A stretch of 55,514 nt of DNA from Candidatus Woesearchaeota archaeon (GTDB lineage Archaea; Nanobdellota; Nanobdellia; SCGC-AAA011-G17; GW2011-AR18). Shown here piece after piece: positions 3,129 through 21,694 of the stretch. Position numbers and translations under genes: made by a program. The stretch is taken from the NCBI GenBank assembly GCA_018302235.1, contig JAGVZW010000034.1, positions 1 to 55,514 on the forward strand. Reading direction: 5' to 3'. Numbering within the stretch: position 1 is the stretch's first letter; every line of letters begins with the position of its first letter. The notes beneath the pieces were generated by a model. The model did not search any database. It was given only the letters and a program-made list of their open reading frames with translations, and was not told the origin of the DNA.

Positions 3129-3151
3129 TAATGAATATTTTAAAATTTATT

Positions 3152-11648: not shown

Positions 11649-12659
11649 ATGAAAATTTGTATCTTTTACACTGCTGCTTTAGGAAATGGTCATAAAAAAT
11701 GTGCAGAGGTTTTAGAAAAAAAATTAAAAGATGGATATGATATTAAACTTATTGATTCGTTAAAAGAATTAAAATTAAATTATTTAATAGGAAATAGTTA
11801 TTTTTTAATTTTAAAATATTTTTCAGGATTTTATGGGAATATATATTTAAATGAAAAAAAATTATTTAAAAAATATTCTATTTTAAAAGATTTTTTTTTA
11901 TATCTCTGTTCTTTTAGATTTAAAAGGATCATTGAAGAAGAAAAACCCGATTTAGTAATCTGCACGCAGGCTTTTCCTTGTGCTGTGTTCTCGAGAATTA
12001 AAAAAAATTATAAGCTATTTGCGGTTATTACTGATTTTCACCTGAATTCTTCTTGGATAAATAAGAATGTAGATTATTATGCTGTATCTTGCAATGAGAT
12101 TAAGAAAAAATTAGAAGAAGAGAATATTGATAAAGATAAGATAAAGGTTACTGGAATACCTGTTGATGTGTTAAATAAAACCTCTAAAAAAAAATATATT
12201 TTAATTATGGGTGGTGGTGCTGGACTAGGCGACATAGAATCTGTGGTTAATAAGTTAAAAGATAACTTTCAACTTAAGGTTGTTGCTGGAAAAAATAAAG
12301 GATTAAAGAAAAGATTAGAGGGAAAGTGTAAGGTTTATGGCTTTGTAGATGATATAGACAATATTTATGCTGAATCTTTTTTAGTTATAACAAAACCTGG
12401 CGGGTTAACTGTATCTGAATTGCTCAATATACAACTTCCTATGATATTATTGGATCCATTACCTGGTCAAGAAGAAAAGAATTTTGAGTACTTAATTAAA
12501 AATAAGATTGCATATAAACTTAATGATGATTTGATTGGATTAATAAATAAAATTATTAGCAGTAATCATGAAAAAATAAAGGACTTTTCAAGGCCTGAGG
12601 CTGCAGTAGAGGTGTTGCATCTCATTAATGACCTTTTAAAGCCCTTCAAAGAAAAATAA
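11649..12659 (+). CDS. glycosyltransferase, MGDG-synthase/UgtP-like (GT28 type)
   Basis: N-terminal GNGHKK, central MGGGAGLG and C-terminal KPGGLTVSE...GQEEKN motifs, as in diacylglycerol glycosyltransferases. Confidence 0.7.
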   Translation: MKICIFYTAALGNGHKKCAEVLEKKLKDGYDIKLIDSLKELKLNYLIGNSYFLILKYFSGFYGNIYLNEKKLFKKYSILKDFFLYLCSFRFKRIIEEEKPDLVICTQAFPCAVFSRIKKNYKLFAVITDFHLNSSWINKNVDYYAVSCNEIKKKLEEENIDKDKIKVTGIPVDVLNKTSKKKYILIMGGGAGLGDIESVVNKLKDNFQLKVVAGKNKGLKKRLEGKCKVYGFVDDIDNIYAESFLVITKPGGLTVSELLNIQLPMILLDPLPGQEEKNFEYLIKNKIAYKLNDDLIGLINKIISSNHEKIKDFSRPEAAVEVLHLINDLLKPFKEK

Positions 12660-12791
12660 ATTTTCTTCGTCTTCTCTATAGTCATCTATATATCCTATCA
12701 TCATTGCTTCCTCTATGTCGTTAATTTGATCTTCATCTCTTAATATTTCTAAGAATGTTTTGGAATAAACTGTGTTATTTAGGCTTTGCAT
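12636..12791 (-). CDS. small acidic ORF (51 aa), speculative
   Basis: ggagg 8 nt upstream of the ATG. Translation MQSLNNTVYSKTFLEILRDEDQINDIEEAMMIGYIDDYREDEENLFFFEGL. Downstream of cdc6 on the same strand. Confidence 0.3.
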   Translation of the reverse strand: MQSLNNTVYSKTFLEILRDEDQINDIEEAMMIGYIDDYREDEENLFFFEGL

Positions 12792-12880
12792 TTTATTTCC
12801 TCCTTTTTTATTGGTAGATTCATGATTTGTTGACTAAACAACCTTGAAATCAATTCGATTTCTTTTTTTTCTGTTTTCAT
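12779..12880 (-). CDS. small ORF (33 aa), speculative
   Basis: gggggtggt upstream of the ATG. Translation MKTEKKEIELISRLFSQQIMNLPIKKEEIKCKA. Its end overlaps the start region of the next small ORF. Confidence 0.25.
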   Translation of the reverse strand: MKTEKKEIELISRLFSQQIMNLPIKKEEIKCKA

Positions 12881-12969: not shown

Positions 12970-14043
12970 TTAATCATTGCTAAATTGATCTAATTTTGTT
13001 TCAAAAAAAATTTGGGTGGTTCTTCCCTCATACCCTAGATTTAATTCTTTAAGATTGATTAGTTTTGATTTTTGTAAGTCTTTAATTTTTCTAGAAAATG
13101 TTCTATATGTCTTTTTACCGCCTATTTCTTCATATTCCTTGAATACTTCTAAGACTGTTTTTCCTGAATTTTGTTTTATTAAATCTAATATTTGTTGTGA
13201 TTCTTTGTTTAATTCTTGTATTTTTTTAATTTTGAATTCAGATAGTTTTGAAATTGCTATGTTTGTGTGTTCTTCTAAGATTTTTTTAGATGATTTTGCT
13301 TCGGCTATAATTCCTGATTCTTTCATTAAAAATAACCCGGCTCTAATGTCTTGTAGTTCAAATGTTTTTTTACAGATTTTATAGAATGATTCTTGGTTTA
13401 AAACCCCTGGAAAGAATGCATATCCTTTTCTCTGTGCTAAAATTCCTGTTGTTTCTTCTTCATTATACGGCTCAAAATTTAATAAATCTGGGATTAGTCT
13501 TGATCTAATTCTGTTATCCATATCTGCCATAAATAATTCGTCATTTGTAATCAAAATGATTGTTTTTTTATGAATATCTTCTAATAAAGAATAAATTATT
13601 GATTGATCTTCTAATTTATCTACTTCATCTAACACTATAACTACTGATTTTTTGTTTAATATATTTGCTGCTACTTGTATTAAATCTTCTCCGCTCTTAT
13701 TATGCGTCCAAGAATAATTAATTTGGTGGCATAATTCAGTAATTATTTTAAAGAAAGAATCTTTTTTCCAACAATTTATGTATATTTGGTAGATATTATC
13801 AGTTTCATTTTCTAAATCTCTTAAAACAGATCTTATTGCTGCTGTTTTTCCTATCCCTGGTTGACCTGTGATGATTATATTTCTTCCGTTTCTTTTTTGC
13901 AATAGTGGTTTTATACACTCTGCAATATAATGTTGTTGTGTTTCTCTGTATTTTATTTCTTTTGGCAAATAATCATAATCTAAGGCTGTTTCGTTTTGAA
14001 ATAATGTTTCATTTGATTGTAATATATCTTTGAATAAGGACAT
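12970..14043 (-). CDS. cdc6: Orc1/Cdc6 replication initiator
   Basis: Walker A GQPGIGKT, Walker B VIVLDEVD, C-terminal winged-helix-like region. Confidence 0.9.
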   Translation of the reverse strand: MSLFKDILQSNETLFQNETALDYDYLPKEIKYRETQQHYIAECIKPLLQKRNGRNIIITGQPGIGKTAAIRSVLRDLENETDNIYQIYINCWKKDSFFKIITELCHQINYSWTHNKSGEDLIQVAANILNKKSVVIVLDEVDKLEDQSIIYSLLEDIHKKTIILITNDELFMADMDNRIRSRLIPDLLNFEPYNEEETTGILAQRKGYAFFPGVLNQESFYKICKKTFELQDIRAGLFLMKESGIIAEAKSSKKILEEHTNIAISKLSEFKIKKIQELNKESQQILDLIKQNSGKTVLEVFKEYEEIGGKKTYRTFSRKIKDLQKSKLINLKELNLGYEGRTTQIFFETKLDQFSND

Positions 14044-14175
14044 AATAAATTAGGGTTCGTTTTAATTATAAAGATTATTATGAAAAAGAAAATTAATAAT
14101 TGCAACAAAGAATATCTTCTATCCGTGTATGCGTATTTATATAGTATTGTCCTTCGCCTGGCCCACATGCTAATC

Positions 14176-14508
14176 CTAAAATTCTGGCCGATACGAGCAG
14201 TCTTCTAATATAAATTCATTTGTGCTAAATAACTTACGGTTACAATATTCATCACTAAAATAACCTACTTCTGTATTAAGTTGAGATGCTAAACACCTAG
14301 AATAACCCATTTCTTCACATATCTCTTCTCCATTCATCCTTATACTCCTAAAGTCTGGTATTCTAGATAATATATAATCCTCTGAAACAAAATAACATCC
14401 AGAATAATCAGGTAATTCTTGGGATATGTGGTTCTGTTCTCCTAAAAATCCCATCCTTCCCGTATAGCTAATACCTATTGTTCCTATCATAAGAACAATA
14501 ACAATCAT
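14176..14508 (-). CDS. Cys-rich N-terminally anchored protein family, copy C1 (possibly decaying)
   Basis: Shares G-x-E-I-C...GYSRC(L/F) and later Cys positions with 15093-15482 and 19717-20151. The frame stays open 11 codons further upstream to an SD-positioned ATA (14541). The CC tail survives only as an out-of-frame remnant near 14091-14114. Confidence 0.5.
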   Translation of the reverse strand: MIVIVLMIGTIGISYTGRMGFLGEQNHISQELPDYSGCYFVSEDYILSRIPDFRSIRMNGEEICEEMGYSRCLASQLNTEVGYFSDEYCNRKLFSTNEFILEDCSYRPEF

Positions 14509-14510
14509 AA

Positions 14511-14589
14511 CTAAACTAATGTAAAAATATTTATCTTCTATTTTATCACCTCTAAATTTTTATAAGAAAATTAAGATGAAGATATATAT
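14511..14589. repeat. 79-bp leader repeat, copy 1 (identical to 15485-15563)
   Basis: Base-by-base comparison found no mismatch. Covers the 5-prime leader and promoter region of C1. Confidence 0.9.
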
Positions 14590-14636
14590 TGGAAAAATTC
14601 CGAAAAACATATAAATAATATAATCTTCTTAATATT

Positions 14637-14801
14637 ATGACATCAACTATTGAAACAATACATGAAGATTTATTAGATTTAAAGAAAGATGTTACTTTTA
14701 TTAAAAATATACTTTCTGAAGAATTTGAATTAAGTGATTCTGCTTTTAATGCTTTGAAAAAGGCTAGAGAAACACCAGAATCTGAATATATAGATTTATA
14801 A
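14637..14801 (+). CDS. putative antitoxin of the RelE/ParE module (54 aa)
   Basis: Own translation MTSTIETIHEDLLDLKKDVTFIKNILSEEFELSDSAFNALKKARETPESEYIDL. Its stop overlaps the toxin ATG by 1 nt (TAATG). Confidence 0.55.
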   Translation: MTSTIETIHEDLLDLKKDVTFIKNILSEEFELSDSAFNALKKARETPESEYIDL

Positions 14802-15058
14802 TGACTTATAAAATTAAATTACATCCAGAAGTACATAAATTTATTGAAAAATTGGATCAGAATATAGCAGAAAGAATTAGAAAGCGTTTAAAATTATTAG
14901 AAAATGAACCTTTTAGATATTTAGAACATTATGAAAGCCAAACTTTTTTTAAATTTAGAATAGGCGAATATAGGGCTTTAATAGATGTAGATACAATGCG
15001 ATTTACTATTTTTATTAGAGTATTAGATCACAGAAGTAAAATTTATAAAAGAAATTAA
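14801..15058 (+). CDS. relE: RelE/ParE-family type II toxin
   Basis: 85 aa. FKFRIGEYRALIDVD...IFIRVLDHRSKIY matches the RelE/ParE core pattern (R-x-G-x-YR...hR..vY). Confidence 0.75.
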   Translation: MTYKIKLHPEVHKFIEKLDQNIAERIRKRLKLLENEPFRYLEHYESQTFFKFRIGEYRALIDVDTMRFTIFIRVLDHRSKIYKRN

Positions 15059-15092
15059 AGAAAAATTTATTTTTTACAACAAACAATGCTCT

Positions 15093-15482
15093 CTAACTTA
15101 AGCCTTCCAACATTATATCTCCATTTTCTGGTTCAGTAAATTCTGGATCTAATATTAGATCACATTCATCAGGCACTTCATATGTTTCATCACAAGAAAT
15201 ACTTAAACTAATGTCATCTACATCTTGTAGTTTACCTTGACAACTGCCATCCGTTGAATCAAATGCTCCTTTTCTAAATCTAATATTTGAGAGAAAACAT
15301 CTATTATAATTTAAACTCGTACATATTTCATTTCCTGTTTTTCCACTATAACTAATGCCTGTTGCACTAAGTGCATTCTTATCAATAAATTCACAGTTTC
15401 CTAACATATCTGAATTTTCTTTATTCCAAAAGGCATATCCAGTAAAACCTAAACTTCCTAGAATTAAAATAGCAACAACCAT
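15093..15482 (-). CDS. Cys-rich N-terminally anchored protein family, copy C2 (tail disrupted)
   Basis: Paralog of C1 and C4. Stops at EGLS, and the family tail ...SIVCCKK follows out of frame (15067-15090). Same ATA-for-ATG leader as C1. Confidence 0.5.
   Translation of the reverse strand: MVVAILILGSLGFTGYAFWNKENSDMLGNCEFIDKNALSATGISYSGKTGNEICTSLNYNRCFLSNIRFRKGAFDSTDGSCQGKLQDVDDISLSISCDETYEVPDECDLILDPEFTEPENGDIMLEGLS
15386..15454. repeat. 69-bp coding repeat shared by C2 and C4 (other copy 20028-20096)
   Basis: Near-identical, about 2 mismatches. Encodes GFTGYAFWNKENSD(M/I)LGNCEFI. Confidence 0.85.
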
Positions 15483-15484
15483 AG

Positions 15485-15563
15485 CTAAACTAATGTAAAA
15501 ATATTTATCTTCTATTTTATCACCTCTAAATTTTTATAAGAAAATTAAGATGAAGATATATAT
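15485..15563. repeat. 79-bp leader repeat, copy 2 (identical to 14511-14589)
   Basis: See copy 1. It is followed by one extra TA unit relative to copy 1. Confidence 0.9.
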
Positions 15564-15700
15564 ATTATGGTTAATATTTGAATCTTCTTTTATAATTTTA
15601 TGATCAAACAATCCTAAACTAAGTATAATAACTATAATTTCATTACTTTTATAGAAATAATGAACATAATCTTTTTAAGATAAATAAATACTATTTGTTT

Positions 15701-17080
15701 ATGACTGAAAGAACTATGCGTCTTTTAATTAAAGTACTAAGTAAATTAAAAAAACAAGATAAAGCTGTAATAAAATCATTTGAAAAGAGGTATAAATCTT
15801 TTAAATTACATAAAGATTATATAAATGCAATAATTTTTACTTATTTTGAATTATTAAAAAATAAAGATTCTAAAGGATTAAAAAATGATCTTAAAGAATG
15901 GATTAATAATCTAATTAAAGATTGTTTAGTTCATTATGATTTAGAAAAAGAAAGTAAACTTTTAGATAAACTTTCAGATGAAAAAGAATTGGTCTATAAG
16001 GTACAAAAAAAACTTGAAGACTTATTAAATAATTTGAAGGTTGAACGATTAAGGGAAAAATTATTGGAAAAATATGAATGGATAAAAGAGGTGAATGTTG
16101 AAGAAATATCTAGTTTATTAGAAGAAAATGCGAGTTTACAATTTTCTTTAGTTGCAGAAGAACAAAGAATTTTAACTAACCTCATAGGTTCTTTAGACGG
16201 TTCTGGGGAGTTATATTCTAAGGACATGGAAGTGAAAGTAGAACAACTTTCTGGGATTATATATCAATTAGAAAAGCTTCTTATAGAAGAAAAAAGAAAA
16301 ATTATAGATCCACTTTATAGTATACTGGCTAGATGTTTGTTTAATATTAAGAAAGAAAAAATAACTAGAGAAGATGTGTTAGAAGATATTGAGGCCATGG
16401 TTGATCATTTAGATGCTATAAATTATTTGAATGCGCTTTTAAGTCTTAATGTTGATAGATCTATATTAAAATATGCACAAAGATTAGCTAAAGAGGCAGA
16501 AAAAAATGCTAGAAATGAAGTGGAATCATTAGAACAACAGGTGATTTTGGATTCATTTACTCGATTGTATAACAAAGCTTATTTTAATATTATGCTACAA
16601 AAATTCACAAAAAAGGCTATTGAAACAAATTCTCCTCTTTCATTAATTACGATTGATATTGATAATTTTAAAATAGTGAATGATCTTTATGGACATACTG
16701 TAGGTGATGATGTTATTAAAGGTTTAGTTGAAAAAATTAAACAAACTGTAAGAAGGAAACAAGATTTGCCTTGTAGATACGGCGGAGAAGAATTTTTTAT
16801 TCTTTTGCCGTATGTAAATTTAGAAGGAGCAAAAAAAATTGCTGAAAATATAAAAAAAGGATTTAAAGAATTGAAATTTGAAGTTGAAAGATATGCACAG
16901 CCACCAGAAAACTCTACAATAAAAATTCTGGAAGAGAATAATAAATATTATATTGGTGTTACTATTAGTATAGGAATTGCTGAATATAATAATGAATTGC
17001 CATTGGAGTTTGTAAAGAAAGCTGATGAGTTTTTAATAAAAGCTAAAAACATAGGGAAAGATTGTATAGTCACTCAATAA
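15701..17080 (+). CDS. GGDEF-domain diguanylate cyclase with about 280-aa helical N-terminal domain
   Basis: DSFTRLYNKAYF, IDIDNFKIVNDLYGHTVGDD, RKQD-LPCRY-GGEEF (I-site RxxD five residues before the A-site), SIGIAEY and ADEFLIKAKNIGKD. ATG at 15701 preferred over TTG at 15695. Confidence 0.85.
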   Translation: MTERTMRLLIKVLSKLKKQDKAVIKSFEKRYKSFKLHKDYINAIIFTYFELLKNKDSKGLKNDLKEWINNLIKDCLVHYDLEKESKLLDKLSDEKELVYKVQKKLEDLLNNLKVERLREKLLEKYEWIKEVNVEEISSLLEENASLQFSLVAEEQRILTNLIGSLDGSGELYSKDMEVKVEQLSGIIYQLEKLLIEEKRKIIDPLYSILARCLFNIKKEKITREDVLEDIEAMVDHLDAINYLNALLSLNVDRSILKYAQRLAKEAEKNARNEVESLEQQVILDSFTRLYNKAYFNIMLQKFTKKAIETNSPLSLITIDIDNFKIVNDLYGHTVGDDVIKGLVEKIKQTVRRKQDLPCRYGGEEFFILLPYVNLEGAKKIAENIKKGFKELKFEVERYAQPPENSTIKILEENNKYYIGVTISIGIAEYNNELPLEFVKKADEFLIKAKNIGKDCIVTQ

Positions 17081-17483
17081 GTTCTCTTTTAATTTTAATT
17101 ATAGGTCGTAGATCTCTTATTGATTTTCCAGATTCATCATAAATTACTACAACGCCATTTTTATTATAATAAACGTGGGAAAATGCGGTGTCATACCTTT
17201 GAAATTCCCCTTCTGGTCGAAATTTATAACATTCCCCTTTTTCTTCAAAATAATCATCTATATCTCTAACATCCCATTTTTGGTCTTCTCTAAAAAAATG
17301 AAATTTGTTGCTTTGAAAACCACCTGGTCTAAAATAGAAATAATTTTTACTGGCATATACATAACCAATTCTGTTTTCTCCTGACACAAGACATAAATCG
17401 CGTAAATTATTCTTTTCTAATTCTCTAATAAAATTATCAACCCATATTTCTTTTATAGGTTGTAATTTTTCATCTATTGTCAC
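17070..17483 (-). CDS. P-family protein, copy P1 (137 aa, unknown function)
   Basis: GTG start. The first 18 aa (MTIDEKLQPIKEIWVDNF) and the tail (...I(K/R)(R/K)ELIE) are shared with 17865-18260. The core is divergent but alignable (YFYF, HFFR, YNK-G-VVIY-ESG). Confidence 0.6.
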   Translation of the reverse strand: MTIDEKLQPIKEIWVDNFIRELEKNNLRDLCLVSGENRIGYVYASKNYFYFRPGGFQSNKFHFFREDQKWDVRDIDDYFEEKGECYKFRPEGEFQRYDTAFSHVYYNKNGVVVIYDESGKSIRDLRPIIKIKRELIE

Positions 17484-17540
17484 AAATTATTAGTAGTTTA
17501 TAGATATTTAAATAATTACGAATTATTAAGATATAGATTA
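17429..17540. repeat. 112-bp repeat spanning P1 5-prime coding end and promoter (other copy 18206-18317)
   Basis: Constant offset of 777 bp, 3-4 mismatches by eye. Confidence 0.85.
17507..17514 (-). promoter_or_regulatory. candidate TATA box for leaderless P1 transcript
   Basis: tatttaaa on the minus strand, centred about 27 nt upstream of the GTG start. Conserved in the P2 copy. No SD present. Confidence 0.4.
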
Positions 17541-17565
17541 GGATATATTATTTAAAAAAGAAAAG

Positions 17566-17864
17566 TTATTTTTTACAACAGATTACACCTTCTATACGAC
17601 TACTAGCTCCAAAATATGGTTCAACATCTGGTTGATCATTTGTTTCATATATGCCAGGTTCAACGATTATTTTATCTGGGCCGACTCATGTTACAACAAC
17701 CTCTTTGTCTTGAATATTACCATCACAAGTTTGAGTATTTTAAAAATAAACTATTTCTCCTCTTACACTTGAAGCAAAACTTCTTTGATAACTTAAATCA
17801 TTACAAATTTGATTTCCTGTTGTTCCATAACTTGATAGGTCTATTCCTAGCAAAAATAGTGTAG
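17566..17864 (-). pseudogene. Cys-rich family copy C3, pseudogene
   Basis: Own translation: ...LGIDLSSYGTTGNQICNDLSYQRSFASSVRGEIVYF*NTQTCDGNIQDKEVVVT*VGPDK...SSRIEGVICCKK*. Lacks the signal-anchor N-terminus and abuts the P2 stop. In-frame TAA (17740-17742) and TGA (17686-17688). The conserved Cys in Y-x-R-C is replaced by Ser. Confidence 0.8.
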
Positions 17865-18260
17865 TTACTCGATAAGTTCTTTTCTAATTCGAACGATTGG
17901 TTTTGTATCTATCTTTATACCACTTTCTGAATAATATATTACAATATTTCCTTTATTATAAAAAATGGTAGATAAATGTGATTGGTACATTTCTAATTTT
18001 CCCTCTATATATAATGCAGAATTTTTTATTCTTTGAACATTCCATAATCTGTCTTGGTATAATTTTCCTCTAAAAAAATGTAAAACAAATATAGCATGAT
18101 CATCATAAAAAGTAGCATTACCTATCTCAAAATAATAATAATTATTATCTACAAAAACTGGATATTGGCATCCTAATTCAGAAACTCTTTTTAAATTTGA
18201 ATGATTAAAATTATCAACCCATATTTCTTTTATAGGTTGTAATTTTTCATCTATTGTCAC
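17865..18260 (-). CDS. P-family protein, copy P2 (131 aa, unknown function)
   Basis: See P1. GTG start, with the same upstream TATA-like element. Confidence 0.6.
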   Translation of the reverse strand: MTIDEKLQPIKEIWVDNFNHSNLKRVSELGCQYPVFVDNNYYYFEIGNATFYDDHAIFVLHFFRGKLYQDRLWNVQRIKNSALYIEGKLEMYQSHLSTIFYNKGNIVIYYSESGIKIDTKPIVRIRKELIE

Positions 18261-18317
18261 AAATTATTAGTAGTTTATAGATATTTAAATAATTGTGAAT
18301 TATTAAGATATATATTA
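18206..18317. repeat. 112-bp repeat spanning P2 5-prime coding end and promoter (other copy 17429-17540)
   Basis: See the P1 copy. Confidence 0.85.
18284..18291 (-). promoter_or_regulatory. candidate TATA box for leaderless P2 transcript
   Basis: Same element and spacing as for P1. Confidence 0.4.
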
Positions 18318-18327
18318 TAATGTATAG

Positions 18328-18420
18328 TTTATTACCTCTTAAATTTTATAAGAAAATTAATGTGAAGATATATATATATATATATATATATATAACGGTT
18401 TTAAATTTCTTCTATGTTAT
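18328..18420. repeat. orphan copy of the C4 leader/promoter plus the last 5 codons of gene 20211-20444
   Basis: Aligns to 20151-20230 apart from TA-tract length and about 3 substitutions (SD gaggtga becomes gaggtaa). No Cys-rich ORF follows it. Confidence 0.8.
18368..18394. repeat. (TA)n microsatellite, 27 nt
   Basis: Uninterrupted alternating AT run. The homologous tracts are about 13 nt at 20192-20204, 9 nt at 14582-14590 and 11 nt at 15556-15566. Confidence 0.9.
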
Positions 18421-18509
18421 TTTAATATTAAAGAATTTCTAATTTTAATATATAAATAAAAATATTTAAATAGTAATTATATTTAATATTAGTAAAAAAA
18501 CTACTAAAA

Positions 18510-19220
18510 ATGCAATTAAGTAAATTAGAAAACAAAATATATGAAGGTTTAAAAAAGAATAAGATTCCTGTATTTAAATCTAAAGACCTGTGTATTTTGT
18601 TTAATATTGATAAAATAAAGGCATATAATTTAATTAAATCCTTAAAAAGAAAAGATATTATTAAGAATGTTGGAAAAGGATTTTTGGCTTTTAAAGATGT
18701 TAATGAATTTATTATAGGACAAAATTTAAATTATCCTTGTTATCTTTCTTTTTTATCAGCGTTAAATTATTATGCATATACTGATCAATTACCTAAAAAA
18801 ATATACTATGTGACTACTAAATATTCCAAAGAAATTAATAATTTTAAATATATTACTTTTGCAAAAAATAAATTTTTTGGTTATATTAAATTTGGGGATT
18901 TGATTATAGCTGAAAAAGAAAAGGTATTTATAGATTCTTTACTTTATCCTAAATATTCTGGTGGGATAAAAGAAATAATTAAATGTTTTAATGTGTCTAT
19001 AAAAGAATTAGATAAAAAAAAATTAATAGATTATGCTTATAAAACTAAAAATAAAGCTCTTTTGAGAAGGTTGGGTTTTATTTTAGAAATGTTGAAATTT
19101 AATGAAAATATTTTAAAAAAACTTAGAAAAAATACAGGCAATGGATATGAATTATTAGATCCTGATTTAAAGAAAAAAAATAATTTTAATAAAAAATGGA
19201 TGTTAGATATTAATTGTTAA
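18510..19220 (+). CDS. AbiEi-like antitoxin/transcriptional regulator (type IV TA)
   Basis: N-terminal wHTH-like segment (LSKLENKIYEGLKK...FKSKDL...AYNLIKSLKRKDIIKNVGKGFLAF). Followed 1 nt later by an AbiEii-like remnant. Confidence 0.55.
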   Translation: MQLSKLENKIYEGLKKNKIPVFKSKDLCILFNIDKIKAYNLIKSLKRKDIIKNVGKGFLAFKDVNEFIIGQNLNYPCYLSFLSALNYYAYTDQLPKKIYYVTTKYSKEINNFKYITFAKNKFFGYIKFGDLIIAEKEKVFIDSLLYPKYSGGIKEIIKCFNVSIKELDKKKLIDYAYKTKNKALLRRLGFILEMLKFNENILKKLRKNTGNGYELLDPDLKKKNNFNKKWMLDINC

Positions 19221-19221
19221 G

Positions 19222-19715
19222 ATGATAAACATAACAGAATTGGCTAAAATAAAGGAAGATAGAAGAACTAATTTATATTATGAAGAAAAAGAATATTTAC
19301 AATATATATTTTTATATGCTATTTCTAAATATGCAATAGATTTTGTATTTAAAGGAATAGAAAAAAGGTAAATAATACAATTAGTAAAGTTATTCCTCAA
19401 TTATTTTCTGATGTTCCATTATTTATTTTGATAATTTTAGATGAAAAAGAAATTTTTGCAGAAAAAATAAGGGCTTTAGTAAGTAGATCAGAAGCGAGAG
19501 ACTTGTATGATGTTTGGATATTATTAAATAAAAAAGTTGAAATTGATAAAAAACTTATTTTAGAAAAACTAAAGGAAGAAAATAAGAGATTATCTGATTT
19601 GAAATTACCTTCTAAGGAAGAGTATACTAATAATTTAAAACAATTAGTTTCTTTTGTCCCTTCTTATGAGCAAGTCAAAAAAGAGGTTTTAGAGCTTATT
19701 AAAAAAATAAAATAA
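19222..19715 (+). pseudogene. AbiEii/DUF1814-type nucleotidyltransferase toxin, internally deleted and frameshifted
   Basis: N-terminal fragment MINITELAKIKEDRRTNLYYEEKEYLQYIFLYAISKYAIDFVFKG then premature stop. The C-terminal fragment, in another frame, has EIFAEKIRALVSRSEARDLYDVWILL, as in AbiEii. The nucleotidyltransferase core between them is missing. Confidence 0.6.
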
Positions 19716-19716
19716 A

Positions 19717-20151
19717 TTATCTTTTACAACAGATTACTCCATCAAATCTTAGTTTTGAAGATTTATCACTAGCAATTCCTATAAATTCATTAGAGCCTGC
19801 TTGCATACAGTTTGTGACTGGACTAAATATTAGGTCTACGCAATCCTCTAAATAATTATCCATTATAACATAAGGTTTGTTACCAGTACAAGATCCATCC
19901 ATTGAACTAAAATAAGTATCAATATTTGTAATTTGTGTAGCAAAGCATCTACTATAACCAAATTCAATACACATATCATTACCCGTTCTAAGCTCAGATG
20001 AACTATCATAATCATTAGGTGAATCTATAAATTCACAGTTTCCTAATATATCTGAATTTTCTTTATTCCAAAAGGCATATCCAGTAAAACCTAAGCCGCC
20101 TAGAAATAAAATAGCAATAATAGATATTACTAAAATTATTTTATTATCCAT
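19717..20151 (-). CDS. Cys-rich N-terminally anchored protein family, copy C4 (intact: SD, ATG, CCKR tail)
   Basis: gaggtgataaaATG start, signal-anchor LVISIIAILFLGGLGFTGYAF, 6 spaced Cys plus C-terminal ...GVICCKR. Confidence 0.7.
   Translation of the reverse strand: MDNKIILVISIIAILFLGGLGFTGYAFWNKENSDILGNCEFIDSPNDYDSSSELRTGNDMCIEFGYSRCFATQITNIDTYFSSMDGSCTGNKPYVIMDNYLEDCVDLIFSPVTNCMQAGSNEFIGIASDKSSKLRFDGVICCKR
20028..20096. repeat. 69-bp coding repeat shared by C4 and C2 (other copy 15386-15454)
   Basis: See 15386-15454. Confidence 0.85.
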
Positions 20152-20230
20152 TTTATCACCTCTTAAATTTTATAAGAAAATTAAGGTGAAGATATATATA
20201 TATAACGGTTTTAAATTTCTTCTATGTTAT
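20151..20230. repeat. C4 leader/promoter plus 3-prime end of gene 20211-20444 (other copy 18328-18420)
   Basis: See 18328-18420. Confidence 0.8.
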
Positions 20231-20444
20231 CTTTTGTAGGTATTATCATTCTTAAAGATAATCCTAATTTTAGAATTGCAGATAAGATTGCCATATGTTC
20301 TTTTCCTGTACCAGAATAAAGATTTAGAGCAACTTCAGTATCTTTTATTTTTTCTTTTAAATTTTTTATAATTTCTTCTCTAATAGAAATGATAAATGCT
20401 ATAGTTTTTAAAATTAATGTTGTGACAATATAATTTTTGCTCAA
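20211..20444 (-). CDS. hypothetical protein (77 aa)
   Basis: ORF only. LNLYSGTGKEHMAILSAILKLG is loosely reminiscent of Rossmann/CARF-type TGGTK loops, but the protein is too short to call. Its last 5 codons are duplicated at 18400-18420. Confidence 0.35.
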   Translation of the reverse strand: MSKNYIVTTLILKTIAFIISIREEIIKNLKEKIKDTEVALNLYSGTGKEHMAILSAILKLGLSLRMIIPTKDNIEEI

Positions 20445-20510
20445 ATGTTTTTAGAAATGTGGTATAAAAAAACACAAGATATTTAAAGGGAATGCAGATT
20501 ATATTAGTTA

Positions 20511-20756
20511 ATGGGTCAAGCAGAGATAAAAGATGTGTTAGAAAAGACGAAAAAATGGATGTTAAGTAGAGAGATAGCAGAATTGGCTGGTTTATCTTTG
20601 GGTTCTGTGCAGGCTGGATTATCGCGAATGATAAAATTTGGTGAAGTTGAGAGTAGACCTGCTAGGGATGTTATTTTGGATAAAACAAGATTGAAGAGCT
20701 TATGTCCTGCCATGGCTTATAAATTAAGAGAAGATTATTATGAAGAAGAAAATTGA
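20511..20756 (+). CDS. small winged-helix DNA-binding protein (81 aa)
   Basis: HTH-like LSREIAELAGLSLGSVQAGLSRMIKFGEV. Visibly higher GC than the surrounding island. Confidence 0.55.
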   Translation: MGQAEIKDVLEKTKKWMLSREIAELAGLSLGSVQAGLSRMIKFGEVESRPARDVILDKTRLKSLCPAMAYKLREDYYEEEN

Positions 20757-21694
20757 GATTCACCTTCTATTTCTTTAAGTTTTTTTCTTATTTTATCTGA
20801 TAATTTTAATTCATTTAATAATTCTTTATATCTGTTTCTTATTGTAACTTCTGTAACTCCAGCTACATCTGCGACCTCTCTTTGTGTTCTTTTTTCATTA
20901 TTAATTAATGCTGCAACATATAATGAAGCTGCTGCAATTCCTGTTGGACCTCTGCCAGATGTAAGTTCTGCTTTTCTAGCATCATTAAGTATATCTACTG
21001 CCTTAGATTGTGTTTTTGCTGATAATTTTAGGGCTGAAACAAATCTTGGAAGATAATCTACTGGGTTACTAGGAAGGATTTTTATGCCTAATTCTCTAGT
21101 TATAAATCTATATGTTCTTCCAACTTCTTTTTTATCCATTCCGGATGCTTCAGATAATTCATCTAATGTTCTTGGTACTTCGTGTCTACGACACGCTGCA
21201 TATAAAGCGCCAGCAACAACAGATTCCATTGAACGACCCCTAACTAAACCCCTTTGTACAGCAGAATGATAAATTCTTGCTGCTTCTTCCTCGACAGATT
21301 TTGGGAGTTTTAAATAAGAAGAGACTCTTTTTAATTCTGCAAGAGCTAATTTTAAATTTCTTTCAATGGCTGTTGATATTCTATGCTGCCATTTTCTTAA
21401 TCTAAAATATTTATTTTTGCCTTTAGCACTTAATTGATATATTTCGCCTTTTTGACCTATATCTGTACCTAATCCTTTGTCATACTTTGTAAATGTCATG
21501 GGGGCGCCTGTTCTTCTTCTTTTAGATTCTTCATCAGAAAATTCTCTCCATTCTTGGCCAAAATCGATCATTTTTTCTTCAATAACTAGACCGCAATCTC
21601 TACAAATTGCTTCTCCTTTTTCTTTTTGAAATAATAGATTAGAACCCCCACATTCTGGGCATTTTTTAATATAATCTCTCATTTTTAGCTCCAT
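20738..21694 (-). CDS. tfb: transcription initiation factor TFB (TFIIB)
   Basis: N-terminal Zn ribbon CPECGG...CRDCG and two cyclin-like repeats (RGRSMESVVAGALYAACR, TQREVADVAGVTEVTIRNRYKEL). Confidence 0.95.
   Translation of the reverse strand: MELKMRDYIKKCPECGGSNLLFQKEKGEAICRDCGLVIEEKMIDFGQEWREFSDEESKRRRTGAPMTFTKYDKGLGTDIGQKGEIYQLSAKGKNKYFRLRKWQHRISTAIERNLKLALAELKRVSSYLKLPKSVEEEAARIYHSAVQRGLVRGRSMESVVAGALYAACRRHEVPRTLDELSEASGMDKKEVGRTYRFITRELGIKILPSNPVDYLPRFVSALKLSAKTQSKAVDILNDARKAELTSGRGPTGIAAASLYVAALINNEKRTQREVADVAGVTEVTIRNRYKELLNELKLSDKIRKKLKEIEGESQFSSS

Follow-up and report, generated by a model that had tools for sequence, protein, structure and literature searches.

The locus upstream of orc1/cdc6

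The window analyzed here comprises 55,514 nucleotides of a Candidatus Woesearchaeota archaeon (contig JAGVZW010000034.1 of assembly GCA_018302235.1), and the subject of this study is a variable island located in it between orc1/cdc6 and the gene for the transcription factor TFB. An original prediction, made from the sequence alone, had placed this island at 14044-20510 and described it as a fast-evolving accessory or defence-type region surrounded almost entirely by information-processing genes. The window has a GC (guanine plus cytosine) content of about 26%, and its genes are archaeal housekeeping genes; the flanks are not solely devoted to information processing, as they also code for glycosyltransferases, a peptidase, TatD and a metallophosphoesterase. 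On the left side, the island is anchored in the backbone by orc1/cdc6 (12970-14043, minus strand), which was recognized by the Pfam domains AAA_22 (2.9e-13), Cdc6_lid (2.2e-7) and Cdc6_C. The adjoining 46 bp or so upstream of orc1 (14044-14089) are common to the window and contig L013 of the closest relative (see below), with the DNA alignment running to 14089, and carry the presumed orc1 promoter. On the right side, the backbone consists of a gene for an 81-aa helix-turn-helix (HTH)-like protein (20511-20756, plus strand) and the TFB gene (20738-21694, minus strand; TFIIB 2.1e-47). While the island itself proved to be real, the predicted right border was about 300 bp too far out: a 77-aa open reading frame (ORF) at 20211-20444 was recognized by tblastn as the remnant of a conserved 118-aa gene, here called p118, which is normally located directly upstream of orc1. 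The p118 remnant (20211-20380, minus strand) is the true right border; the island proper thus covers 14044 to ~20210, and the backbone includes p118 as well as the gene for the 81-aa HTH-like protein.

The window represents a population of Woesearchaeota/Nanoarchaeia (DPANN) from the Rifle aquifer, which has been sampled repeatedly, as revealed by exact-protein look-ups; its contigs include ANAN16 scaffolds of up to 139 kb, contigs of the JGI sample 3300025317 and the metagenome-assembled genome (MAG) GCA_036829615.1. In a species-representative collection, the nearest genomes are labelled Woesearchaeota or Nanoarchaeia. The nearest one, MAG SMAG_U8091 (contigs L013, L084 and L085), is referred to as the sister species; its Orc1 shares 89% amino acid identity with that of the window. 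Contig L084 and the window population stem from the same JGI sample (3300025317), indicating that the two species co-occur.

Cys-rich genes and their repeated promoters

Four copies of a cysteine-rich gene family, three of them damaged as had been predicted, were found on the minus strand of the island by tblastn with the intact copy and by inspecting the ORFs. The intact gene, CysD (19717-20151), codes for a protein of 144 aa with 8 cysteines, an N-terminal hydrophobic or transmembrane helix and a C-terminal ICCKR, and is the sole copy in the window which keeps an in-frame, intact V/ICCKK/R protein end. This end is conserved across the Cys-rich family. CysB (15093-15482) matches CysD with 53% identity (E 6e-24) and is 93% identical over its first 98 nt, with the conserved VCCKK end out of frame. 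CysA (14176-14508; E 7.5e-8) is a C-terminally truncated membrane-anchored paralogue whose ORF lacks the conserved V/ICCKK; its degenerate 3' end runs on to about 14098, and the sequence at 14073-14119 resembles the 3' flank of Cys genes. Finally, Cys fragment C (17556-17850; tblastn match at 17569-17841, E 3e-4) is a pseudogene without a start codon and with internal stops, which has kept the ...GVICCKK end and is 81% DNA-identical to a degenerate Cys remnant located beside p118 in the sister species.

CysD and a Cys gene of the sister species (P0002) are 95-100% identical upstream of the gene and over its first ~100 nt; the identity then drops to 38-59% over the central ~320 nt and rises again to 97-100% from the 3' end onward. 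Judging from such alignments, the Cys genes are mosaics with near-identical ends and an unalignable, hypervariable core. Because of the hydrophobic N-terminus, the 8 cysteines and the hypervariable core, we infer that the proteins are membrane-anchored or secreted surface molecules, probably under diversifying selection. The family appears to be narrowly distributed: a word-index search of 5.8e9 proteins returned only two homologues of CysD, and the family is confined to the window species and its sister. A sister Cys gene is located at L085:3329-3757 (plus strand), and the family resembles the allelic cassettes of a surface antigen.

The Cys genes share a common promoter and Shine-Dalgarno (SD) segment, in front of which lies a (TA)n tract and, in many cases, a remnant of the 3' end of p118. 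A 39-nt motif from this segment occurs four times in the window, compared to an expectation of 0, and all four copies lie inside the island. The copies in front of CysA (R1, 14511-14589) and CysB (R2, 15485-15563), both on the minus strand, are the exact 79-bp repeats which had been noticed at 14511 and 15485, and end in (TA)3 and (TA)4, respectively. The third copy (R3, 18334-18423, minus strand) comprises a Cys promoter/SD that lacks a Cys ORF, a (TA)13 tract (18368-18394) and a copy of about 28 nt of the p118 3' end; it contains the predicted orphan promoter copy (18336-18374) and the predicted (TA)n tract, which amounts to (TA)13.5 when counted over 18368-18394. The fourth copy (R4, 20153-20233, minus strand) combines the CysD promoter/SD and (TA)6 with the true p118 3' end. 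R3 and R4 are the left and right direct repeats of a 1810-bp cassette which contains the AbiE genes described below and CysD. According to an alignment of all copies, the repeat unit reads in gene orientation as about 28 nt copied from the p118 3' end, followed by (TA)n, a ~45-nt promoter/SD segment and the initial ~100 nt of a Cys gene. The layout of R3 and R4 would arise if a circle carrying one such unit had recombined into a resident unit beside p118, and would be explained equally well by the loss of a segment via recombination between two units.

Toxin-antitoxin and Abi modules

The island contains two recognizable modules, which by their sequence are addiction or abortive-infection modules and are arranged tail-to-tail with Cys genes. 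The first is a type II toxin-antitoxin operon (14637-15058, plus strand), corresponding to the RelE/ParE pair of the original prediction. Its second gene (14801-15058) codes for an 85-aa ParE/RelE toxin (Pfam PF05016 ParE_toxin, 9.4e-7 and 29.8 bits at a cutoff of 23; PHROG RelE-like, 8.6e-11), which is overlapped by 1 nt (TAATG) by an ORF for a putative antitoxin of 54 aa (14637-14801) without a family match in Pfam, NCBIfam, PADLOC or PHROGs. The second module encodes AbiE. The AbiEi antitoxin and transcriptional regulator (18510-19220, plus strand; 236 aa) was identified over its full length by PADLOC (4.6e-52), without a match in Pfam, and is followed in canonical order at a distance of 1 bp by the gene for the AbiEii toxin (19222-19715, plus strand), which is broken into pieces of 49 aa (19222-19371) and 95 aa (19428-19715), the C-terminal one still being recognized by Pfam (5.8e-12). 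AbiEi is known to neutralise AbiEii, a nucleotidyltransferase toxin, and ParE and RelE are type II toxins. The presence of AbiEi next to a broken AbiEii agrees with the original prediction, but the decay is private to this sequence and caused by a 250-bp deletion: although no intact AbiEii (DUF1814) adjoins AbiEi in the window, other assemblies of the population contain an intact gene for 247 aa (on contig L001 with 9.8e-30 in Pfam and 9.3e-48 in PADLOC), and decayed AbiEii is therefore not a property of the population. The label of a defence-type island has no basis other than AbiE and the classical toxin-antitoxin genes; PADLOC matched no system beyond AbiE.

GGDEF protein and F2 family

The conserved core of the island consists of one gene for a bacterial-type GGDEF cyclase and two orphan paralogues, all of which had been noticed before. 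The GGDEF gene (15701-17080, plus strand; Pfam 2e-38, TIGR00254 2.8e-41) codes for a lineage-specific helical N-terminal part of about 280 aa and a bacterial-type GGDEF domain, in which the GGEEF motif is intact at residue 361 (16781-16795) and the RxxD I-site is represented by RKQD at residue 352. Full-length homologues were only found in the window species and its sister; the other matches listed cover about 30-60% of the query, corresponding to the GGDEF domain, with 30-45% identity, and the named ones are bacterial. GGDEF domains and cyclic di-GMP signalling are rare in archaea (PMC5847659), and GGDEF matches in DPANN have been noted before (PMC8646023). Contamination is unlikely to account for the gene, because it is located on a 139-kb archaeal scaffold.

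The two copies of the second family, F2A (17070-17483, minus strand; 137 aa) and F2B (17865-18260, minus strand; 131 aa), are 38% identical (E 7.6e-22). F2A is convergent with the GGDEF gene with an overlap of 11 bp and has only two homologues among the 5.8e9 proteins searched, while an exhaustive HMMER search with an F2 profile over 1.84e9 representatives returned its own family and two borderline matches (E about 4e-4). These borderline matches, an RHS-repeat protein and a multi-Ras-domain protein, were judged to be noise, and the family is confined to the window species and its sister. In addition to the 79-bp repeats, we detected an exact 89-bp repeat (17429-17517 and 18206-18294) which is not contained in the original prediction and represents the first 18 codons of F2B with the upstream DNA, identical to those of F2A. 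Because the N-termini of F2A and F2B are identical here and different in the sister species, the 5' identity points to a recent gene conversion in the lineage of the window.

Insertion site between p118 and orc1

We compared the site with 62 orc1 loci from related genomes, which were searched by tblastn. The p118 gene was found in 44 of these Woesearchaeota loci, on which all gap statistics given here are based, with 41-59% identity, and p118 and orc1 flank the site there. In 19 of the 44 relatives, p118 lies upstream of orc1 on the same strand at a distance of 29-71 bp, whereas the gap amounts to 269-444 bp in 8, to 0.6-1.8 kb in 13 and to 3.6-6.7 kb in 4 of them. The gap contents are unrelated between genomes and comprise MazE with a PIN toxin, an MNT-type nucleotidyltransferase, PIN_2 and a split reverse transcriptase; further gap ORFs resemble RluA, HAD hydrolases, AlaX and NifS/NifU, as judged by eye from their translations only. 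Because of these unrelated contents and the size range from 29 bp to 6.7 kb, the junction between p118 and orc1 is a recurrent insertion point across the order. A gene order conserved in distant relatives, which would be at odds with a variable island, was not observed in any of the 44. The split reverse transcriptase (RVT_1, 6e-15) is encoded by two ORFs at L032:5694-6883 (minus strand) in another member of the Woesearchaeota.

The p118 gene, which is present in full length at L001:3227-3583 (plus strand), codes for a protein without a match in Pfam, NCBIfam or PDB and with only weak matches to CARF domains (PADLOC E about 1e-3). Its invariant residues include S9, G11, G13 and W15 as well as S85, G86, G88, E90 and H91, the latter group being part of the conserved stretch SGxGKEHMA. 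The protein may be a small nucleotide-binding partner of Orc1; as a conserved, uncharacterised gene pair, p118-orc1 may bear on replication control in the lineage. The GC content of 19-28% in the island shows no clear contrast to the ~26% of the whole window, and an atypical base composition is not obligatory for flexible islands.

The position next to orc1 had led to the expectation that an origin of replication would normally be located here, and the 79-120-bp repeats together with the (TA)n tract might then be seen as origin repeats and an unwinding element. The region indeed adjoins orc1, contains repeated elements and the (TA)13 tract and shows the lowest GC content of the window (18.9% at 18-19 kb). 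However, every repeat turned out to be the promoter/SD/start-codon unit of a gene, and apart from the sister species no relative contains the repeats. The premise of an origin upstream of orc1 is itself undercut, because the ancestral p118-orc1 spacer, as seen in the 19 relatives with a gap of 29-71 bp, is too short. Neither repeat nor shared-k-mer searches revealed origin recognition boxes (ORB or mini-ORB) or G-string repeats near orc1 in the window or 60 relatives, which is a weak test as the consensus for the lineage is unknown, and the GC skew, which had been proposed as a check, follows gene orientation. We therefore consider it very improbable that the region is or contains an origin. 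A G-rich 15-mer downstream of orc1 was inspected as an ORB candidate and rejected, as it is the SD sequence of a small conserved ORF. This ORF of about 33 aa (MKTEKKEIELISRLFSQQIMNLPI...; 12780-12880, minus strand) has a strong SD sequence, GGGGGTGGT, is kept in the sister species (L013 6866-7048) and overlaps a 51-aa ORF at 12636-12791.

Variation within the population

Most contigs of the population match the window with 99.97-100% identity where they align, and the locus differs between strains at defined positions. Two contigs, L009 (MEGAHIT, ERZ27254742) and L081 (ANAN16 scaffold, SAMN03842438), carry TFB, HTH and p118 in this order, then a single repeat with (TA)6 and then F2B, and L081 runs on through F2A into the GGDEF gene. 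Both therefore lack the 1810-bp segment with AbiEi, AbiEii and CysD, which is carried by the 21 other F2B-containing contigs that were read. The junction falls inside the direct repeat of about 85 bp formed by 18334-18423 and 20153-20233, and the two contigs are independent, as they originate from different samples and assemblers. Smaller differences affect the repeats and CysD: the (TA)n tract varies between assemblies from 12 over 13 to 14 units at the orphan promoter and between 5 and 6 units at the CysD promoter, and an 11-bp indel splits CysD on contig L008.

Some features are private to the window, namely the 250-bp deletion at 19355|19356 which breaks AbiEii, a deletion of about 186 bp at 20384|20385 which removes p118 codons 1-61, and one single-nucleotide polymorphism in the orphan promoter. 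Both deletions occurred without microhomology, and more than 20 assemblies which are 99.99% identical elsewhere keep AbiEii and p118 intact. The 49-aa and 95-aa ORFs left behind in AbiEii have no record elsewhere, which leaves the private deletions unconfirmed by other assemblies; they may represent a rare variant or strain, or a defect of the assembly or a scaffold gap.

These two deletions and the fact that many contigs end in or near repeats are the points in favour of an artefact, by which the repeats and the arrangement would stem from assembly or binning, or the GGDEF and toxin-antitoxin genes from bacterial contamination. This explanation is hardly credible: the same arrangement (99.99% identity) is found within archaeal scaffolds of 60-139 kb from different samples and assemblers, and the GC content is equally low inside and outside the island. 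Because they recur in many independent assemblies, with an identical arrangement in more than 20 contigs, the repeats are real, as the original prediction had presupposed.

Comparison with the sister species

The backbone genes for MGDG synthase, a phosphoesterase, TatD, an M50 peptidase and eIF5A show 66-74% nucleotide identity between the window and L013, with a synonymous divergence (dS) of 0.9-2.4 and a ratio of nonsynonymous to synonymous divergence (dN/dS) of 0.09-0.32. The values for orc1 are 88% identity, dS 0.53 and dN/dS 0.11. The three core genes of the island, which share 89-94% DNA identity between the species, are much closer, with 91% identity, dS 0.24 and dN/dS 0.25 for the GGDEF gene, 94%, 0.074 and 0.82 for F2A, and 93%, 0.064 and 1.1 for F2B. 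Divergence in the island is thus discordant with that of the backbone (dS 0.06-0.24 vs. 0.9-2.4), which is a sign of lateral transfer. Because the island DNA, including non-coding stretches and the pseudogene, is far closer between the species than the backbone, it must be much younger than the species split. On the right side, the two species share 96-99% identity over the final 300 nt of p118, compared to 84-92% over the greater part of TFB and about 70-75% in the flanks, and the high-identity tract between the species stops inside p118. Regarding the intermediate values on the left side, the exchange of the island may have included orc1. The identity to L013 falls from about 88% to about 70% exactly at the orc1 stop codon.

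In spite of this similarity, the cassettes differ. The block of CysA, the toxin-antitoxin operon and CysB (14090-15650) is absent from L013, and the sister species has an internal relic of AbiEii directly beside orc1. Built on the scaffold of Cys genes and promoter repeats also seen in the window, its cassettes code for an MNT nucleotidyltransferase and a partner of 140 aa, for DUF2683 together with a YafQ-like toxin, and for a PIN_2 toxin accompanied by a 73-aa ORF, and they include AbiEii (remnants). The predicted variability of a fast-evolving locus was therefore observed at the level of strains, of the sister species and of the more distant relatives.

The window, its sister species and the strain without the cassette have only one block in common, GGDEF-F2A-F2B. 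This constancy would fit a single cyclic-dinucleotide signalling or defence system in which the cyclase produces a nucleotide signal, the paralogues serve as effectors or regulators and the remaining island is incidental, as would the intact GGEEF and RxxD I-site and the purifying selection on the GGDEF gene (dN/dS 0.25). However, F2A and F2B evolve with dN/dS values of 0.8-1.1 and have neither a detectable homologue nor a nucleotide-binding domain, the genes are convergent instead of forming an operon, and there is no PADLOC match, so we regard such a system as unlikely.

Search for a dedicated mobility system

As had been predicted, neither an integrase nor a transposase domain was present in any scanned ORF of the island or its flanks, and a flanking tRNA is missing: a tRNA was the sole match of an Rfam scan, and the only one of the window is located at 3151. 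Scans with Pfam, PHROGs and PADLOC revealed no recombinase, replication, structural or transfer hallmark genes; the island had no match to phage DNA and matched plasmids with the GGDEF core only, and the promoter repeat was absent from the viral contigs searched.

One structure reminiscent of integration is a 24-nt direct repeat (14071-14094 and 20731-20754) which matches in 23 of 24 positions, with 0 such repeats expected by chance, and brackets the island together with p118 and the HTH gene. The copy on the orc1 side reads KDYYEKEN*, like the C-terminus EDYYEEEN* of the HTH protein. Taken as att remnants, the two copies would mark a decayed integrated mobile element (a provirus, plasmid or integrative element), which would also agree with the toxin-antitoxin modules as typical cargo of mobile elements and with the much higher similarity of the island DNA than of the backbone between the species. 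Yet this element would lack any integrase, transposase, replication, capsid or conjugation gene, its matches in the phage, plasmid and viral-contig collections would be restricted to the GGDEF core, and the segment bounded by the repeats would enclose p118, which is part of the backbone beside orc1 in 44 relatives. Moreover, the variation proceeds cassette by cassette and not in an all-or-none fashion, the copy on the orc1 side is older than the species split, and the other copy is the normal acidic C-terminus of the HTH gene. A decayed mobile element thus appears quite unlikely to us. An integron cassette array was considered as well and rejected, as neither IntI and attI nor attC-like palindromes were found; the 25 longest inverted-repeat pairs listed include no palindrome located in the repeats.

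Interpretation of the island

Our preferred explanation, to which we assign a probability of about 0.78, is a lineage-specific flexible island inside the conserved p118-orc1 pair, which is remodelled and exchanged by homologous recombination and retained via addiction modules. Recombination between the repeats had already been proposed in the original prediction, and the location of the cassette junction inside a real direct repeat supports it. The mechanism would involve homologous recombination of the RecA/RadA type between the repeated promoter and 5'-coding segments, leading to deletion, duplication and conversion, while exchange with related co-resident genomes would proceed by recombination with p118, orc1 and the repeats as anchors and would not require a dedicated integrase. 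The toxin-antitoxin and Abi modules would persist through addiction and possibly serve in virus defence, and the Cys-rich proteins would be surface molecules under diversifying selection.

Several points weigh against this explanation. The cassette-less contigs represent a slightly diverged strain (99.2-99.4% identity) and could show an ancestral empty site instead of a deletion product, and the raised identity between the species could in part be due to DNA acquired later from a third source shared by both, as opposed to direct exchange. The 24-nt direct repeat (14071-20754) could be a relic of site-specific integration. Furthermore, our conclusions are based on assembled contigs, in which recombination intermediates such as circles or tandem duplications were not observed, and the AlphaFold models of CysD (mean pLDDT 48.0) and F2A (mean pLDDT 49.8), both derived from shallow alignments, are unusable.

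Within the flexible-island reading, a more specific model is possible, but we put it forward only tentatively. The island might be an integrase-independent cassette array with units consisting of a toxin-antitoxin or Abi operon and a hypervariable Cys gene, each bounded by a junction repeat of about 85-120 bp composed of the p118 3' remnant, the length-variable (TA)n tract and the promoter. Such units might excise and re-insert beside p118 by homologous recombination and be traded between co-occurring species of Woesearchaeota, with the addiction modules keeping alternative surface alleles in the population and (TA)n slippage possibly phase-varying their expression.

Since the genomes of DPANN archaea are tiny and these organisms presumably depend on host cells, the few plastic places of such genomes are informative. 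The locus documents, from public assemblies, a hotspot recurring across the Woesearchaeota relatives sampled, together with strain-level gain or loss of a cassette at defined repeats, exchange of island DNA between two co-occurring species, and the pairing of addiction modules with hypervariable putative surface proteins. In our opinion, the parts which stand out are the p118-orc1 pair, the Cys genes with their hypervariable cores, and the cassette-like design, in which a repeated promoter is combined with the remnant of a core gene. No current concept is overturned by these data, which extend the picture of flexible islands to an under-studied lineage.

Comparison with known systems

The individual modules resemble well-known systems. 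AbiE corresponds to the type IV toxin-antitoxin system of this name in the sizes of AbiEi (236 aa) and of the intact AbiEii of the other assemblies (247 aa) and in their canonical order, but it occurs in an archaeal (DPANN) host, and its toxin is broken in the window. The ParE-type operon shares with ParDE and RelBE the small upstream ORF overlapping the gene for an 85-aa toxin of the ParE/RelE fold and differs in its 54-aa partner, which matches no known antitoxin family. With bacterial diguanylate cyclases of the PleD/WspR type, the GGDEF protein has the GGDEF domain, the GGEEF active site and the RxxD I-site in common, at 33-45% identity to bacterial enzymes; unlike these, it lacks a REC, PAS or GAF sensor, contains an N-terminal part of about 280 aa which is unique to the genus, and is encoded on an unambiguous archaeal chromosome.

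At the level of the whole locus, the superintegron of Vibrio is similar in that small cassettes, several of them with toxin-antitoxin genes, are separated by repeats of about 80-120 bp and single cassettes are gained or lost. In contrast to it, the island has no IntI or attI, its repeats are promoter and 5'-coding segments and not attC hairpins, and general homologous recombination would probably take the place of the integrase. The closest correspondence is to the flexible islands and hotspots of bacteria and archaea, with which the island shares a constant location amid core genes, unrelated contents in different relatives, enrichment of toxin-antitoxin, Abi and surface-protein genes, presence or absence within a population, and evidence of lateral exchange. 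It differs from them by lacking an integrase or tRNA target, by splitting the otherwise near-contiguous p118-orc1 pair, and by cassettes delimited by a repeated promoter and the remnant of a neighbouring core gene. The locus is thus a well-documented example of the known type of flexible island or toxin-antitoxin-rich hotspot and not a new system.

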